Shown here piece after piece: positions 32,095 through 49,386 of a stretch of DNA of 64,000 bases (positions are counted from its first letter, which is position 1; every line of letters starts with the position of its first letter). Origin of the DNA: an uncultured Candidatus Saccharibacteria bacterium (GTDB lineage Bacteria; Patescibacteriota; Minisyncoccia; Phycocordibacterales; UBA12088); assembly GCA_964459635.1 (NCBI GenBank), contig CAYWMQ010000002.1:6776-70775 (forward strand), in the 5' to 3' direction. The position numbers and the translations under genes were made by a program. The notes beneath the pieces are model-generated. The model was not told where the DNA came from. It made no database searches and was given only the letters and a program-made list of their open reading frames with translations.

Positions 32095-32100
32095 AGAAGC

Positions 32101-32135
32101 GAGTAGAAAGTAGGAAGTAGCAAGTAGTAAGCAGC
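32101..32135. repeat. Five tandem AAGTAGn heptads (mRNA sense CTACTTn) filling the rplV-rpsC spacer
   Basis: gagtagaaagtaggaagtagcaagtagtaagcagc, read directly. Confidence 0.6.
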
Positions 32136-32141
32136 GCGGGA

Positions 32142-34209: not shown

Positions 34210-34893
34210 TTATTTAGCGGTGCGGGCGCGCTTTTCAAGCACTTCCACCGACTCTGCGGGCGATGCAATGATGAGGTACTTGTGGCGCAAGACTTCTACC
34301 GGATTGAGATTGCGTGCATCCTCAAGCATGATGTGGCCGAAGTTACGGAAGCTCTTCTTTGTTGCCTCGCCCGGCGCTGCGACCGCTACAAGGGCTGCAT
34401 TTTTGCGCTTGGTTGCAAGCGGCGCGAAACCGTCGACCTTCGCAAGCGCCATGAGCGTCTTATTCGCCTCGGCGGCCTTGGGCTCCGCAAATGCAAGCTC
34501 GTCCAGGAAGAGCACCTCGCCATCGGCAAGCTTGCGCGAAAGCACCGCATAGAGAGCCTGTACGCGCATCTTCTTGTTTATCTTCTGCGCGTATGAGCGC
34601 TCGTTGCGCGGGCCATGCGCCACGCCTCCCTTGGTCCAGATAGGGCTGCGGCGGCTGCCGTGGCGGGCGTTGCCCGTACCCTTCTGTTTCCATGGTTTCT
34701 TGCCCGTGCCGGACACTTCCGCGCGGTTCTTCGTGTGTGCGATGGGCGTACGAGCATTGGCCTGCATAGCGGTCACCACCTGGTGTACCAGATCTGCGTT
34801 CCACGCGGCACCGAATACAGCCTCGGGAAGATTGATCTCTCCCGCCTTAGTGCCTGCCGTGTTGTAGATAGTTGCTTTCATGGTGTGGGTCAC
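34210..34893 (-). CDS. rplD: 50S ribosomal protein L4
   Basis: 227 aa; L4 signature region. Confidence 0.9.
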   Translation of the reverse strand: MTHTMKATIYNTAGTKAGEINLPEAVFGAAWNADLVHQVVTAMQANARTPIAHTKNRAEVSGTGKKPWKQKGTGNARHGSRRSPIWTKGGVAHGPRNERSYAQKINKKMRVQALYAVLSRKLADGEVLFLDELAFAEPKAAEANKTLMALAKVDGFAPLATKRKNAALVAVAAPGEATKKSFRNFGHIMLEDARNLNPVEVLRHKYLIIASPAESVEVLEKRARTAK

Positions 34894-35016
34894 GATGCGA
34901 ATCTACGAATGGGTGCGAATGCTACGAATAAATGCTCTACCGGCGATACATTAAGAGTGTTGCATACGTTAGTAATTCATTCGCTGCATTCGTAACATTC
35001 GTTGATTAGTATCGTG
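34894..35016. repeat. Inverted array of ACGAATG / CATTCGT heptad-like repeats in the rplC-rplD spacer
   Basis: Four ACGAATG-type units face three to four CATTCGT units across a ~40-nt centre. It can fold as a long imperfect hairpin in the mRNA. Confidence 0.7.
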
Positions 35017-35625: not shown

Positions 35626-35676
35626 GACGCGATACGAATCAACGAATGGGTACGAATGCTACGAATGTGGTACGTA

Positions 35677-35815: not shown

Positions 35816-35844
35816 TTGACTTTTTCTCTGATATTTGCTATAAT
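35816..35844 (+). promoter_or_regulatory. Near-consensus sigma70-type promoter (TTGACT-17-TATAAT)
   Basis: Read directly in the sequence; it drives the small membrane-protein ORF at 35892. Confidence 0.6.
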
Positions 35845-35891
35845 ATTAAATTGAAGTGTCCCGCACTTTTCCACATAAGTAGGAGGACAAA

Positions 35892-36143
35892 ATGATGGTA
35901 GTCCTATGGTTGGCGTTGGTCACTGTTGCTGGGACGGTCCTGGGCGCCTTCGTTACGGTGCCGGTGCTGCTCATCGTCACAGTGATTGCTATGTCCGTAG
36001 TGCTTTGGTGCTATCTCAAAAATCCTTCGGCCATTTACGGACCATCGGCGGCCGGCCTCATTGCTGGTATGTGGTTCATGTATTTCCTCACCACCCACGA
36101 TGCGGCAGCGCGAACGTTCGTCGACACGTACATCTTGCGGTAG
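35892..36143 (+). CDS. Small hydrophobic membrane protein (83 aa), hypothetical
   Basis: Strong SD TAGGAGGAC; two to three TM helices. Confidence 0.45.
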   Translation: MMVVLWLALVTVAGTVLGAFVTVPVLLIVTVIAMSVVLWCYLKNPSAIYGPSAAGLIAGMWFMYFLTTHDAAARTFVDTYILR

Positions 36144-36179
36144 ATCGAGCAAGCGAAAGAAGAAGGAGTAGGAGCGGCC

Positions 36180-36374
36180 ATGTTCATTTTGCGTAGCCTC
36201 GACAAGAACGGCAAGCGTGTATACCGCACACGCAACGGCGGTTGGAGCACGCATCGGAACGATGCGTGCAGATACGAATCCCACGAGTTTGCGCAACGCG
36301 TAGCTCGACGGACGACGCCGCCGGCGCGCAACGCGCGTGTTGAGATTGAGTCTGTGCGCGAGAAGGAAAAGTAA
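36180..36374 (+). CDS. Small basic hypothetical protein (64 aa)
   Basis: SD GAAGGAG upstream; a hairpin follows at 36431..36456. Confidence 0.35.
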   Translation: MFILRSLDKNGKRVYRTRNGGWSTHRNDACRYESHEFAQRVARRTTPPARNARVEIESVREKEK

Positions 36375-36674: not shown

Positions 36675-37664
36675 CTGTGAATTACGAAACTCCTCCCCAC
36701 CCCTTTGCACCATACACCCCAAACACACCCGTTAGGGTGTAGCACGTACGCTTGATTGTCACACACACGAAGGAAATTGATTGTGCCTACGCGAGCACGA
36801 ATGAAAGAAGTGCGTAGAGATAGTTTGCGAAGTACCCATTCACTGAGCGCGGAAGTGAGGTAACGAGACCGTGGAACAGCTTCAGGTTGCGGAAGTCGAA
36901 CTCGATGTCAAAGCGTTTCTTGTAGAGGTGGAGCTGCCAAGCCTCGGCGAGCTTCTTCATGTTTTTGTACGGCTTGATGAGCACCCACCGCCGGTCGTTG
37001 TTCATGTCGCGCTCAAGTTGCTTTGACACGTACCCCGCATCCGCAACGATGATGCCCTCGATGTATTCGTTGATCTTGCGGAAGATGTCGCGGTCATCCG
37101 CGTTGGCGGGCGTGAAGCGGAGCGCGAGGAGACGTCCCGCAGCATCCCGTGTCATGGTCATTTTAAGGCCGAAATAGAAGCCTTTTCCAGAGTGGCCCCA
37201 TGCGGCGAGTCCGGCCATGGTCTTGTGGTGTTTACCGTTCTTGGTGAGACACACGGGTATATCGGTCGCATCGGTGTACTTCACGATGTGCTGGTCCTTG
37301 TGCCCGAGCCGCATGAGGTATGCAAGGATCAGGAACACCAGACGGGCTGCACGATTGATCGCCTCCACAAACGTCTTGTACGAGCAAGGTATCGCTTCCT
37401 TGAAGTCGTCATATACGGACTTCTTAGTAGCGCGTGTTGACTGATGCCAGTACAGGCCCCAAATGACCGCGTCCAAGGGATTGATGGCTAATGGTCGACC
37501 CACCCTCTTTCCTTCGGGGAGGATGTGGAGTTTTTGTGCTATGTGTGTGACAATGTGCGTGAGGTTGTCCCATATCTTTGGGAACATACAATACAAGAGG
37601 CTCCATACGGAGCCTTTTGTATTGTATCGAAATGCAGTGCGGGAGGGAGTTTCGTAATTCACAG
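36675..37664. mobile_element. IS982-like insertion sequence (990 bp) with 24-bp imperfect terminal inverted repeats and a 7-bp TAAAAAA target-site duplication
   Basis: IRL ctgtgaattacgaaactcctcccc matches IRR (reverse complement ctgtgaattacgaaactccctccc). Direct repeats TAAAAAA at 36668..36674 and 37665..37671. A single DDE transposase ORF lies inside. Confidence 0.75.
36787..37587 (-). CDS. DDE transposase (IS4/IS5 superfamily, IS982-like)
   Basis: 267 aa from MFPKIWDNL; the length and single-ORF organisation are typical of IS982-family elements. The DDE catalytic triad was not identified. Confidence 0.7.
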   Translation of the reverse strand: MFPKIWDNLTHIVTHIAQKLHILPEGKRVGRPLAINPLDAVIWGLYWHQSTRATKKSVYDDFKEAIPCSYKTFVEAINRAARLVFLILAYLMRLGHKDQHIVKYTDATDIPVCLTKNGKHHKTMAGLAAWGHSGKGFYFGLKMTMTRDAAGRLLALRFTPANADDRDIFRKINEYIEGIIVADAGYVSKQLERDMNNDRRWVLIKPYKNMKKLAEAWQLHLYKKRFDIEFDFRNLKLFHGLVTSLPRSVNGYFANYLYALLSFVLA

Positions 37665-37681
37665 TAAAAAAGGCTACAACC

Positions 37682-37709
37682 AAAACGCCGGCCTTGCGGC
37701 CGGCGTTTT
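37682..37709 (-). terminator. Intrinsic terminator downstream of rpsJ
   Basis: aaaacgccggcc-ttgc-ggccggcgtttt hairpin. Confidence 0.7.
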
Positions 37710-37720
37710 GGTAAGTCTTT

Positions 37721-38095
37721 CTAAGACATTTTCACATCAATGTTCACACCTGAGGGAAGGGAGAGGTTCGTGAGAGCCTCAATGACTTTCCCCGATGGGT
37801 TCATGATGTCGATAACCCGCTTGTGCACCCTCATCTCGAACTGTTCTCGCGCATCTTTGTCGATGAAGGCCGCGCGGTTTACCGTGTATTTCTTTATTTC
37901 CGTGGGCAGGGGCACCGGGCCGACCACCTCCGCATCGTACCGCATGGCCGTATCCATGATCTGCTTGATGCTCGCGTCGAGTATCTTGTGCTCGTACGCG
38001 CGGATGCGGATGCGGAGCTTCGTTGCGGGCGCCTCTCCCTGCTTGGCCTTCGGGGCCCTTTTGGCGGTCTTGGGTGCGGTAGGAGCTGCTGCCAT
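37721..38095 (-). CDS. rpsJ: 30S ribosomal protein S10 (with an Ala/Pro/Lys-rich N-terminal extension)
   Basis: ...LRIRIRAYEHKILD... S10 core. Confidence 0.9.
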   Translation of the reverse strand: MAAAPTAPKTAKRAPKAKQGEAPATKLRIRIRAYEHKILDASIKQIMDTAMRYDAEVVGPVPLPTEIKKYTVNRAAFIDKDAREQFEMRVHKRVIDIMNPSGKVIEALTNLSLPSGVNIDVKMS

Positions 38096-46128: not shown

Positions 46129-46174
46129 ATCTCGATACTAATCTACGAATTTCTACGAATACTGCGAATTAATG

Positions 46175-46689: not shown

Positions 46690-47496
46690 TTACCGCATGC
46701 GGCCTCCCTTCCGAGCACTGCGCCATAGGTGGTCAAACTGTTGCGCCATAATCTCTGCCATATCCGCGCTTTCAACCGTCATGGCGTAATGCTCGCGATC
46801 AGAAGCTATGAACGTGACCTTTGTACCGTATACGCCGTACCCCATGGCCGCGGTGAGCTCGGGGGGCGCGATGCGAACTTCGCGCAGCGCCTCAGCATCT
46901 AAACGACGCGAGAGACGCGGGTCAGCAGGCTTCGGCATGTGCGATGCGGGCCATAGTACGCGAATGGAAATGTTCCTGCGTATGCGTTCCGACCGGTACT
47001 CCTCAAATATTTCGCCCGGAATAGCGTGGCGCATACTCCTCACCGGCCAGTACCAGCGCACAAGCGTGCCTGCTCGCAGTATGCCGGCAAAAACAGCACG
47101 GTATGCGCGCACACTGTCGGCAATGAAAAAACGGGGCGTGGCATGTGGCGTGGGCACCGCGCGCGTCAGTAACTCACCGAGCCCACGCGTAGCTGCAGCA
47201 AGGCTGCGCTGCCGCTCATCCGCCCAGCCACGTATTGCGGCTTGGTCCGCCGCAACGAACACCGGAGCTTCCCCTGTGTGTGCCTTGAGCACCAAACCCT
47301 GCTCTTCGAGCCAACGCAGGTGGTCGTACACGCTGGTACGGGGCATGTTGAGCATACGGGCTATATGCAGCGCGGTTGTGCCATTTTCACTGTGCAAAAT
47401 GGCACCAAATACGCGCGTCGCATGCCAGCTGCAGCCGAGCGGCGCCATATGCTCATGCAACGCGGCCACAAAGTCGGTGTCGCTTTTTGTCGACAT
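46690..47496 (-). CDS. TrmB-family HTH transcriptional regulator
   Basis: Winged-helix N-terminus TALHIARMLNMPRTSVYDHLRWLEEQGLV followed by a TrmB-like C-terminal domain. Confidence 0.55.
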   Translation of the reverse strand: MSTKSDTDFVAALHEHMAPLGCSWHATRVFGAILHSENGTTALHIARMLNMPRTSVYDHLRWLEEQGLVLKAHTGEAPVFVAADQAAIRGWADERQRSLAAATRGLGELLTRAVPTPHATPRFFIADSVRAYRAVFAGILRAGTLVRWYWPVRSMRHAIPGEIFEEYRSERIRRNISIRVLWPASHMPKPADPRLSRRLDAEALREVRIAPPELTAAMGYGVYGTKVTFIASDREHYAMTVESADMAEIMAQQFDHLWRSARKGGRMR

Positions 47497-47558
47497 ATGT
47501 ACAGTATAGCGACTCGCGCGTACGGTGCAAAGAGACACGTACATGGAGGGTCAGTACG

Positions 47559-47945
47559 ATGGACGACACCTATGATGCCTTTGTTACGCTCATCAAAGAT
47601 ATCGTCGCTAACGGAGACGCCAGCAAACTGGGACGGGAGCTCGGTGTAAACACGAGCACCGTGCTCCGCTGGGCGCGCGGCGAAAGCCGGCCATCCCGCG
47701 GAGTCGTTTTTCCTATCATGGAATTTGCCTCAGCACTTCAACAGGGCGATGCCGTCGTGAAGGCCGATTTTGTGCGCGCTATGGCTTGGGTTGTAGAACA
47801 CGGGCACGCGGGCGTGCTCGCGCGAGCATTTGGTGTAAACCCAAGCACGGTCGCGCGGTGGGCAACAGACAAAAATCTTCCTCATCCGGCCGTTTGGCCC
47901 ATACTCTGCAAATGGGTCAAAACGGTAGGGGAAGCACGCGGGTAG
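47559..47945 (+). CDS. Tandem-HTH DNA-binding protein (hypothetical regulator)
   Basis: Two internal repeats LG(V/N)...STV.RWA; SD GGAGGG upstream; divergent from the TrmB gene. Confidence 0.4.
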   Translation: MDDTYDAFVTLIKDIVANGDASKLGRELGVNTSTVLRWARGESRPSRGVVFPIMEFASALQQGDAVVKADFVRAMAWVVEHGHAGVLARAFGVNPSTVARWATDKNLPHPAVWPILCKWVKTVGEARG

Positions 47946-48011: not shown

Positions 48012-48662
48012 CTACAAAACACTATCAAGCGGCACGCCCGTAAGAAAACCGAATACGAGCGCCACAAATGCATGGAAGACGGGGCCGATAAAGGTTATGG
48101 CGAGGTACAGGAAGAGAAACACGCCTATGAGCCCGCCCTGCATCAAAAATGACTCAAAGCGTTGGAAGGTAAGCCCCGCGCGAAACGGAAGGAGCGACTT
48201 CAAGAGCTTGGAGCCGTCGAGCGGAGGGAGCGGCAGCAGATTGAAGAGCGCCAAGAGAATGTTGATGTACACCACTACCGCGGCAAGTGAAAGGAACGAG
48301 CCGGGGAGCTCGCCAAGCCCAAAGCGCACCAAGAGCGCAAACACGAGGGCAAGCGCAATGTTCACGGCCGGTCCCGCACCCGCCACGATAGCTTCACCCC
48401 AGCGCTGGTTGCGCAGGTTGTACGGGTTGTACGGCACGGGCTTCGCCCAGCCAAAGAGGAGCGGTGACTGCATGAGCACAAGCAGGCCCGGCAAGAGCAG
48501 TGAGCCTATAGGGTCTATATGTGGAAGAGGGTTGAGCGTGAGCCGCCCTTGAAGACGAGCCGTGGGGTCGCCCAAAAATTCGGCTGCATAGCCGTGCGAG
48601 ACCTCATGAATGATGATGGAAAAGATGAGGGCGAGAAAGAAGAAAATGATAGTGGGGTCCAT
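48012..48662 (-). CDS. Site-2 protease family (peptidase M50) membrane metalloprotease
   Basis: HEVSHG zinc motif within TM helix 1 and an LDG motif later; 216 aa. Confidence 0.75.
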   Translation of the reverse strand: MDPTIIFFFLALIFSIIIHEVSHGYAAEFLGDPTARLQGRLTLNPLPHIDPIGSLLLPGLLVLMQSPLLFGWAKPVPYNPYNLRNQRWGEAIVAGAGPAVNIALALVFALLVRFGLGELPGSFLSLAAVVVYINILLALFNLLPLPPLDGSKLLKSLLPFRAGLTFQRFESFLMQGGLIGVFLFLYLAITFIGPVFHAFVALVFGFLTGVPLDSVL

Positions 48663-48806
48663 GATGTACGAGAGAAGAGATAAAAGAGAAGATGCAAAAG
48701 ATAGCTGGACAGTAAAAGATATGGGGATGGATGCGAGATACTGGGATATTAAAGCGTTGATATACTTAGATATTTCGACCTTATGTTGTGTAAGAACTGA
48801 AAATGC

Positions 48807-48835
48807 TTGACAAAATATGCAGATGGGTGTATGAT
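48807..48835 (+). promoter_or_regulatory. Consensus-like promoter TTGACA-17-TATGAT
   Basis: Read directly; a structured transcript with its own terminator follows. Confidence 0.6.
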
Positions 48836-48841
48836 ATTAAG

Positions 48842-49002
48842 TAGGCTTGGTCGTCCGGCTTTCCGCGTGCCCGCCACCCCGCTCACACTAGGGTGGCCGG
48901 CGTGCAAGCTTTCCGCCCGACGAAAGCCAAGCGCGTACTTCGGCCGCTGATCTCGGCTGAAGCGAGGGGGATGTCATGCGGCGCCGCATGCTCCCCCTTT
49001 TC
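48842..49002 (+). ncRNA. Candidate structured leader RNA / sRNA upstream of rpmB (promoter to intrinsic terminator, about 160 nt)
   Basis: Several predicted hairpins (gcccgccaccc/gggtggccggc; cttcggccg/cggctgaag) and a terminal ggggga...tccccc + TTTT terminator about 80 nt before the rpmB ATG. Confidence 0.4.
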
Positions 49003-49082
49003 TATACATAAAAACATGGCACACATGCTGAAGCAGGAAGACAGTTGCATTCCGCTACACGTATGGTACCATGCCGTAACCT

Positions 49083-49325
49083 ATGGCGAAACAGTGCCCA
49101 ATAACAAAAAAGACATCGCAGGTGGGCGGAGGCTACAGCAACCGCACCCGCGCGACTCAGTTTAACCCTACCGGCACACGCCGGCGCCAGGTGAACCTCA
49201 TGAAGCGCCGCATTTACGTGCCTGAGCTAGGGAAGCACGTAACGCTCGCGCTTTCTGCGAAAGCGATCAAGACCATCAATAAAAACGGCGCGTACAAGAC
49301 GCTTCTCGCCGCGGGAATTATTTAG
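49083..49325 (+). CDS. rpmB: 50S ribosomal protein L28
   Basis: MAKQCPITKK...N.S....T.R...N; 80 aa. Confidence 0.85.
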   Translation: MAKQCPITKKTSQVGGGYSNRTRATQFNPTGTRRRQVNLMKRRIYVPELGKHVTLALSAKAIKTINKNGAYKTLLAAGII

Positions 49326-49365
49326 GCCGGCTTGCGCGGAGCGACTGCACCTTCCTTTTGAAACA

Positions 49366-49386
49366 CCCCCGCCGGGGGTTTTTTAT
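49366..49386. terminator. Bidirectional terminator after rpmB
   Basis: ccccc-gccg-ggggg followed by TTTTTTA. Confidence 0.65.

Follow-up and report, generated by a model that had tools for sequence, protein, structure and literature searches.

A probable autonomous promoter-to-terminator RNA unit, rather than an rpmB leader, between the M50 peptidase and rpmB genes of a small Paceibacteria clade

Intergenic small RNA (sRNA) genes of the generic type consist of a sigma-70 promoter, a body that folds into hairpins, and a Rho-independent terminator made of a GC-rich stem and a U-tract. A similar succession of structure and terminator upstream of a gene is found in the ribosomal protein leaders collected in Rfam (L10, L20, S15) and in the T-box riboswitch (RF00230), which carries a Stem I with a specifier loop and, in an antiterminator bulge, the conserved 14-nt T-box, and precedes aminoacyl-tRNA synthetase or amino-acid genes. 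In autoregulatory leaders of ribosomal proteins, the binding site, as a rule an imitation of rRNA, is conserved together with the protein across taxa. Long 5' untranslated regions can, furthermore, be subject to cis-antisense pairing or to convergent transcriptional interference; the "excludons" of Listeria and the IsrR/isiA pair of Synechocystis are examples. With respect to the promoters that drive such units, bidirectional promoters resulting from the symmetry of the -10 element have been documented in bacteria (PMC10268837, PMC12825309).

A survey of the literature for rpmB/L28 leaders or for small RNAs of CPR bacteria yielded nothing relevant to the locus described here. It lies within a 64-kb stretch of DNA from a Kaiserbacteria-like CPR (Paceibacteria) genome, hereafter referred to as the window, whose L28 protein has its best named homologues in Candidatus Kaiserbacteria and Pacebacteria. 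An earlier note, made from the sequence alone, had drawn attention to a promoter, several hairpins and a terminator upstream of rpmB, and had considered both a leader of rpmB, possibly responsive to L28, and an independent sRNA. In our assessment (probability approximately 0.8), the segment is an autonomous promoter-to-terminator unit and not an rpmB leader, and rpmB is transcribed separately from an ancestral promoter of its own (P2). The available data support the anatomy of a stand-alone intergenic sRNA gene, and it is in this anatomical sense that the independent sRNA suggested earlier survives, with its promoter, hairpins and terminator predicted and no conserved open reading frame (ORF) within it. 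Like the generic intergenic sRNA genes, the unit possesses a promoter of its own, hairpins, and an intrinsic terminator of its own in the form of a GC-rich stem with a U-tract, and it likewise stands alone between two protein-coding genes. Unlike them, it belongs to no family and has no conserved seed, and its body has been replaced between sister species; nor is its lineage known to possess Hfq-type chaperones.

The M50-rpmB locus and the anatomy of the RNA unit

The gene for an M50 peptidase (- strand) and rpmB (+ strand) form a divergent pair. This arrangement recurs in 140 distinct related loci, where the two genes are a median of 71 nt apart, versus 420 nt in the window. The RNA unit, transcribed from a promoter termed P1, lies inside this enlarged gap. 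A long gap that contains a P1-type promoter and a terminator, with a short structured transcript between them, was found only in the window species (represented by L083-L085, which are 100% identical) and in two further lineages, L081/L087 and L088. The features of the locus are as follows:

48012-48662, - strand: M50 peptidase gene (site-2 protease family), 216 aa; ORF, with PF02163 detected on homologues
48663-48806, - strand: probable 5' leader of M50; from base composition and TATCT/ATATC repeats
48807-48835, + strand: promoter P1 (TTGACA, 17-nt spacer, TATGAT); consensus match and comparison with L087
48842-49001, + strand: predicted non-coding transcript of about 160 nt; from folds, with the 5' end inferred and the 3' end given by the U-tract
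48845-48932, + strand: hairpin 1, 88 nt, imperfect; predicted fold
48938-48962, + strand: hairpin 2, 9-bp stem (CUUCGGCCG/CGGCUGAAG) with a 7-nt loop; predicted fold
48966-49001, + strand: intrinsic terminator, a bulged GC-rich stem (GGGGGA...UCCCCC) followed by UUUU(CUAU); predicted fold
49045-49072, + strand: rpmB promoter P2, TTGCAT (49045-49050), 16-nt spacer, extended -10 TGgTACCAT (49064-49072)
49083-49325, + strand: rpmB (ribosomal protein bL28), 80 aa; ORF, with PF00830 detected on homologues
49365-49379 and T-run, + strand: terminator of rpmB itself, downstream of the gene

On the other side of the M50 gene, two helix-turn-helix genes (TrmB-like, 284 aa, - strand; XRE-like, about 128 aa, + strand) occupy positions 46690-47945 between rpsL and M50; in the outgroup loci L082, L170 and L173, M50 directly follows rpsL-rpsG. 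Judged from this gene order, the helix-turn-helix pair is probably a second clade-specific insertion adjoining M50.

Promoter P1 matches 11 of the 12 consensus positions (-35 at 48807-48812, -10 at 48830-48835) and is thus as close to consensus as the earlier note had described it; TTGACA-N17-TATAAT with at most one mismatch occurs at three sites in the 64-kb window, against 0.12 expected from shuffled sequences. Owing to the symmetry of its -10 region (TATGATA), TATCAT can be read on the - strand; this partner is accompanied neither by a -35 element nor by a TG extension. The stem of the terminator (48966-48997) and its U-tract (48998-49001) are located 80 nt before the rpmB ATG at 49083, again as previously noted; a simple terminator scan overlooked this hairpin because its stem is bulged. 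Read on the - strand, the stem is not followed by a U-tract. The occurrence of a near-consensus promoter together with a terminator on the same strand 160 nt downstream, within intergenic DNA devoid of a conserved ORF, is clearly more than chance would produce.

Between these two ends, the transcript is predicted to fold into three hairpins, the terminator included, in keeping with the several GC-rich hairpins claimed before. Hairpin 1 contains a symmetric UUUCC/UUUCC internal loop (-43.4 kcal/mol, z = -2.5); the corresponding values of hairpin 2 are -13.6 kcal/mol and z = -3.9. The segment 48840-49005 as a whole has a minimum free energy of -81.4 kcal/mol (z = -3.55 versus dinucleotide shuffles). 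A large share of this folding strength is contributed by the terminator: once it is removed, z amounts to -2.8, and when 123-nt pieces are drawn at random from the window, 10% of them have z <= -2.5. The antisense strand of the segment folds equally well (z = -4.09). In view of these two values, the predicted structure beyond the terminator is modestly above background; the hairpins of the "aptamer-like structure" proposed earlier do fold, but these values do not establish an aptamer.

The terminators have short U-tracts (UUUU in the window, UUU in L087/L088), and partial read-through toward rpmB is possible. The rpmB AUG, then internal to the read-through transcript, might even be translated, since this genome hardly uses Shine-Dalgarno sites (motifs of this type precede 6 of 61 genes). 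No ORF of the P1 transcript is conserved in comparison with L087/L088: the short ORFs of the window are without counterpart in the sister species, the L087 transcript has no start codon, and frame-breaking indels occur in the L087/L088 alignment; a small-protein gene can thus be rejected. The same holds for a relic of a tRNA or tmRNA, neither of which was reported by ARAGORN at the P1 unit.

The probable leader of M50 (48663-48806) is C-poor and GATA-rich on the + strand, and correspondingly G-poor on the - strand. It is about 73% identical to the corresponding tract of L081/L087, and a similar tract adjoins the M50 gene in L111. G-poor leaders containing three to six short direct repeats precede many genes of this genome, among them rplC, rpsG and M50, as well as the gene at 34210-34893 that adjoins rplC; those located in the window lie at 48663-48806, 34894-34940, 35626-35670, 46129-46174 and 32095-32140, and carry the repeats ATTCGTA/ATTCGCA, CTACTT and TATCT. 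In other Paceibacteria, the motifs GCTAA, CCTAA, GGTTGT and TTCGTA were noticed before rpmB. Such repeat leaders may be enhancers of translation initiation.

Two further near-consensus sigma-70 promoters in the window drive modules of a different kind, each with a pair of small ORFs (83 and 64 aa at 35816-36374, + strand; 91 and 55 aa at 58026-57484, - strand). Both pairs stand out from the rest of the genome by their clear Shine-Dalgarno sites (AGGAGG, GGAGG), and the first of them adjoins a 298-aa ORF (36787-37683, - strand) that we take to be transposase-like; both modules look foreign or mobile. The strongest fold among the sampled segments of the window (z about -9) is found nearby at 37614-37736, in the form of a long perfect hairpin (CCAAAACGCCGGCC-TTGC-GGCCGGCGTTTTGG) with A/T runs on both sides, which appears to terminate transcription in both directions, being situated between the 298-aa ORF and an ORF of 126 aa.

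The promoter of rpmB and its palindromic core

Promoter P2 sits between the terminator of the P1 unit and the rpmB start codon and ends 10 nt before the ATG, a position from which a leaderless-type rpmB mRNA is predicted. The P2 block is nearly invariant in the window species, L081/L087 and L088, while its surroundings diverge. The nearest outgroups (L082, L170, L173) have this promoter too, although they do not have the RNA, for which their M50-rpmB gaps (about 70-160 nt) are too short. We compared 168 L28-anchored loci from GTDB species representatives and JGI metagenomes. In 64 of 149 distinct loci, nearly all of them RNA-less, an extended -10 element of the P2 type precedes the rpmB ATG at a distance of 5-16 nt (mode 10); TTGnnn is found at -35 distance in 54 of these 64. 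From this distribution it follows that the ancestral state of rpmB is that of a leaderless or near-leaderless gene whose promoter is proximal, and this promoter has been retained in the window behind the terminator. It is mainly because this conserved promoter follows the terminator that we do not regard the unit as the leader of rpmB: with TTGCAT-16-TGgTACCAT lying between terminator and ATG, a placement of the element in the 5' untranslated region of the main rpmB transcript is not supported.

The core of P2, ATGGTACCAT (49063-49072), is a perfect palindrome, so that the extended -10 element can be read on the - strand as well. Palindromes of the form ATGnTAnCAT (consensus TATGnTAnCATA) were detected in 104 of the 140 distinct M50-rpmB intergenic regions of Paceibacteria; their median distance to the M50 ATG is 23 nt, and the rpmB ATG is typically 10 nt away. 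The palindromic -10 element would appear to be a candidate bidirectional promoter common to M50 and rpmB in most relatives, leaderless-type for rpmB and providing at most a short leader for M50. Both P2 and P1 resemble the symmetric -10 promoters described in other bacteria (PMC10268837, PMC12825309) in that both of their strands are readable, and in the majority of relatives P2 is flanked by two divergent genes, each at a leaderless distance. This likeness concerns the context of the RNA and not the RNA itself, and bidirectional activity is a prediction from the symmetry of the motif.

Another arrangement in front of rpmB was noted in L119 (about 1395-1500), L120, L136 and L147, where a short ORF that begins with MARVC and resembles the N-terminus of L28 (e.g., MARVCDPGTTTLRVGYGAGITGRK, followed by a stop, in L119) comes after a leaderless-type promoter. 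This ORF overlaps a conserved hairpin, composed of GCGACCCC, a variable stem with a UUCG loop, and ACGGGGCAGGCAUAAC, which shows apparent compensatory changes, lies directly before the real rpmB start and was not matched by any Rfam model. The ORF and hairpin of the L119 lineage could be an upstream ORF, a remnant of a duplication, or a genuine rpmB leader.

Distribution and conservation of the unit

When the RNA was compared by blastn and nhmmer with 80 rpmB loci of GTDB representatives and 80 from metagenomes, all of them L28-anchored loci at this genomic position, no homologue was recovered beyond the three lineages. The unit is absent from all of the more distant rpmB upstream regions fetched, and from the M50-rpmB position of the outgroup loci L082, L170 and L173. 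A repeat or mobile element can be dismissed, since the RNA has no second copy within the 64-kb window and no exact match in IMG/VR.

The comparison of the RNA rests on three lineages (the window species, L081/L087 and L088) whose rpmB genes are very similar. The L28 proteins of the window, L087 and L088 are identical, and that of L081 (P0006) is 99% identical; at the nucleotide level, rpmB identity amounts to 95.5% between the window and L088, 90% between the window and L087, and 92% between L087 and L088. The RNAs of L087 and L088 are about 115 nt long, clearly homologous (alignment z = 11-19 versus shuffles), and consist of a 5' hairpin, a GGAGC/GCUCC hairpin and a GGGGG...CCCCC UUU terminator; in their MAFFT alignment, which contains two distinct sequences only, hairpin 2 and the terminator are out of register. 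The body of the window RNA aligns with those of L087/L088 no better than shuffled sequences do, in local as well as global alignments (z about 0 to 2), and the terminator region alone gives z of about 3.5. A nhmmer profile of the L087/L088 RNA found no match at the locus in the window, and the sequence of hairpin 1 is unique to the window species. The window species is the closest relative of L088, yet its RNA body cannot be aligned to that of L088.

Conservation is seen at the two ends of the unit. The P1 hexamers are identical in the window and L087, and the spacer has diverged (16 nt in L087 versus 17 nt in the window); this is the one informative comparison for P1, the L088 sequence being truncated at the -10 element. 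GTAGG at the predicted start (+1) is common to the RNAs of the window and L087/L088, and the base of the terminator, AGGGGG...CCCCCUUU or AGGGGG...CCCCCTTT, is the sole long motif that they have in common. The retention of these elements next to an unalignable body suggests that the ends of the transcription unit are constrained and that its interior has been replaced or remodelled within a short time. That the body cannot be aligned despite the near-unchanged L28 protein speaks against both an L28-binding site and a ligand aptamer.

Unrelated filler sequences, often rich in palindromes, were observed in the M50-rpmB regions of L054, L139, L138 and L024 (225-625 nt); the gap was enlarged independently in these lineages, and the palindromic promoter remains beside rpmB despite the filler. 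From this pattern, the M50 side of the gap seems to be a recurrent insertion site across lineages of Paceibacteria.

Possible roles of the unit

Three roles can be considered for the autonomous unit, and we rank an action in cis on M50 before an insulated by-product, and the latter before an sRNA acting in trans. Common to them is the probable autonomy of the unit: transcription from P1 probably begins near 48842 and yields about 160 nt of non-coding RNA, which folds into two self-contained hairpins and stops at a constitutive intrinsic terminator, and rpmB is transcribed separately from the ancestral P2 as a leaderless-type mRNA. The unit is part of about 350 nt of extra DNA, present only in a tiny clade of Paceibacteria, that parts M50 from P2. 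Given that only the promoter, the first bases and the base of the terminator are conserved, what matters for its function would probably be that transcription occurs, and where, and not the binding of a ligand or a protein by a folded RNA. According to the first proposal, M50 would still be transcribed leftward from the - arm of the P2 palindrome, and its leader of about 400 nt would run antisense through the unit. P1 would then fire head-on into this leader and generate a perfectly complementary RNA, such that the expression of M50 would be damped or tuned, and the terminator would halt transcription from P1 before P2 is occluded.

Several observations are consistent with this proposal. In a simple scan of the - strand of the M50-rpmB gap, the palindrome arm of P2 (49063-49068) was the sole promoter-like site, and a simple terminator scan reported no terminator on that strand. 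The G-poor tract of the M50 leader extends from the M50 ATG to the start site of P1 (about 48845). Provided that M50 transcription starts at the palindrome, the RNA of the window would be fully complementary to the M50 leader, as in cis-antisense RNAs; the sequence of the unit would be free to turn over because complementarity is automatic, and such free drift fits the conserved ends and unconserved body of the unit. A convergent P1 and a terminator that protects P2 would likewise explain why conservation is confined to promoter and terminator. In contrast to the excludons of Listeria and to IsrR, the overlapping M50 transcript is here deduced from promoter comparison only. Moreover, a structured leader of 400 nt would be unusual for so compact a genome, and M50 could instead be started at the weak - strand partner of P1 (TATCAT). 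In that event there would be no overlap with the RNA, and the rightward transcript would be either a trans-acting sRNA or an insulated by-product. We infer both the transcript ends and the link to M50, and offer antisense or convergent interference on M50, taken as a whole statement, as a tentative proposal that stands somewhat below even odds. Still more speculative is the evolutionary scenario that goes with it, in which an insertion of about 350 nt into an ancestral, palindromic and doubly leaderless bidirectional promoter of rpmB and the protease gene would have created a protease leader of about 400 nt and a convergent antisense or interference cassette whose sequence is free to turn over; we consider this scenario doubtful.

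The RNA may alternatively be a functionless by-product of a strong promoter that came with the insertion or evolved in it, a promoter perhaps needed leftward for M50, with a GC-rich stuffer and a hairpin that insulate P2 and rpmB. The body indeed evolves as though unconstrained, the structure beyond the terminator is modestly above background, and the M50-rpmB gap of other lineages carries unrelated, lineage-specific fillers. In addition, the symmetric -10 element of P1, with hexamers offset by 1 nt, would place divergent start sites about 18 bp apart, a spacing typical of symmetric bidirectional promoters. A pure by-product would, however, have no need of the perfect rightward TTGACA -35 element that the window and L087 have in common. 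The - strand partner of P1 is devoid of a -35 element and a TG extension, and it is rare for compact CPR genomes to retain 350 nt of useless DNA in three species. On balance, we think it improbable that the RNA is such a by-product, though it is the next reading to be considered after an action on M50.

An sRNA acting in trans, in which a stable, terminated RNA of about 160 nt would pair with distant mRNAs or titrate a protein and in which the adjacency to rpmB would be incidental, would account for the classic sRNA-gene anatomy (strong promoter, hairpins, intrinsic terminator, no ORF) and for the retention of promoter and terminator in three species-level lineages of a very compact genome type. 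With the exception of the terminator base and GTAGG at +1, though, no seed-like motif is common to the window and L087/L088, and the bodies are unalignable. The 64-kb window contains neither a copy nor a complementary stretch of more than 13 nt, and the duplexes predicted with 50 translation-start regions could not be interpreted; they were unrealistically long, showed no signal for the neighbouring genes and were discarded. We consider a trans-acting sRNA unlikely.

It is very improbable that the unit regulates rpmB in cis as its leader, be it a riboswitch, a T-box or an attenuator for autoregulation by L28, with P1 as the rpmB promoter and a terminator that would open or close in response to a ligand, a tRNA or L28. 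The order of promoter, structure, terminator and gene is that of attenuators, and the short U-tract makes read-through conceivable; nevertheless, P2 follows the terminator 10 nt from the ATG and occurs in RNA-less relatives too, which speaks against a leader of rpmB; the layout itself had been read correctly in the earlier note. Autoregulation by L28 fares no better, for the putative binding RNA cannot be aligned among three lineages whose L28 proteins are identical or 99% identical, and it is missing before rpmB in all the more distant loci fetched. The lack of conservation in relatives, which the earlier note had named as evidence that would count against it, thus largely weighs against a leader. 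A generic riboswitch is rejected on the same ground, its aptamer not being conserved and the body aligning like shuffles despite 90-96% rpmB nucleotide identity. Ribosomal protein leaders such as those of L10, L20 and S15 likewise sit upstream of a ribosomal protein gene and combine structure with a following terminator, but the unit of the window differs from them in the separate gene promoter between terminator and ATG, in its lack of conservation across species with the same protein, and in the lack of an Rfam match and of a switch.

Regarding such a switch, no mutually exclusive antiterminator and terminator folds were found for the window RNA, whose nascent folds leave the 5' strand of the terminator unpaired. 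Forcing the terminator open would cost 16 kcal/mol and produces no defined alternative helix. An antiterminator-like pairing, of an upstream CCCCCU with the AGGGGG of the terminator, is seen in the nascent fold of L087 and would suit a leader; it has no equivalent in those of L088 and the window. By these predicted folds, the terminator of the P1 unit looks constitutive.

A T-box is suggested, apart from the layout of promoter, structure and terminator, by an 8-nt match: UAGGGUGG (48889-48896), in the 3' strand of hairpin 1, corresponds to the start of the T-box consensus, AGGGUGGNACCGCG. This 8-mer is buried in a hairpin stem and, because it lies about 45 nt after the predicted start, leaves no room for a Stem I upstream; a specifier loop and an antiterminator bulge are lacking too. 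The motif is absent in the sister species, the T-box model of Rfam is not matched, and the downstream gene, rpmB, is neither an aminoacyl-tRNA synthetase nor an amino-acid gene. We judge the resemblance coincidental, and a T-box is rejected.

The earlier note had recognized no known RNA class, and the Rfam comparison it had recommended agrees with this. With Rfam 15, the whole window yielded two tRNAs and nothing else at gathering score. On positions 48650-49150 (501 nt), a search at E <= 10 gave chance-level matches only (mir-346 at 19 bits versus the 80 needed, an HCV stem-loop and a lentiviral frameshift element), and none to the T-box, riboswitch or ribosomal protein leader models; the L087/L088 loci gave no match at E <= 1, and nothing usable came from further loci. 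Membership in a curated family (riboswitch, T-box, ribosomal protein leader, 6S, SRP, tmRNA, RNase P) is rejected accordingly, no gathering threshold being reached. The housekeeping RNAs 6S and SRP/4.5S are further disfavoured by the unconserved body in sister species and by the absence of the unit at the outgroup locus.

In practical terms the message is a negative one, as the P1 unit represents neither a new riboswitch nor an L28 autoregulatory leader, and it carries the advice to look first for a second, gene-proximal promoter whenever a promoter, hairpins and a terminator are encountered in front of a gene. The value of the unit itself is limited by its restriction to three near-species, its unconserved body and the lack of an assignable function. 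Since the regulatory RNAs of CPR bacteria are almost unexplored, a credible autonomous small-RNA unit is nonetheless a useful entry for the mining of metatranscriptomes. Its context is arguably of more interest than the RNA: a conserved palindromic -10 element between M50 and rpmB, in a genome with G-poor repeat leaders in place of Shine-Dalgarno sites.
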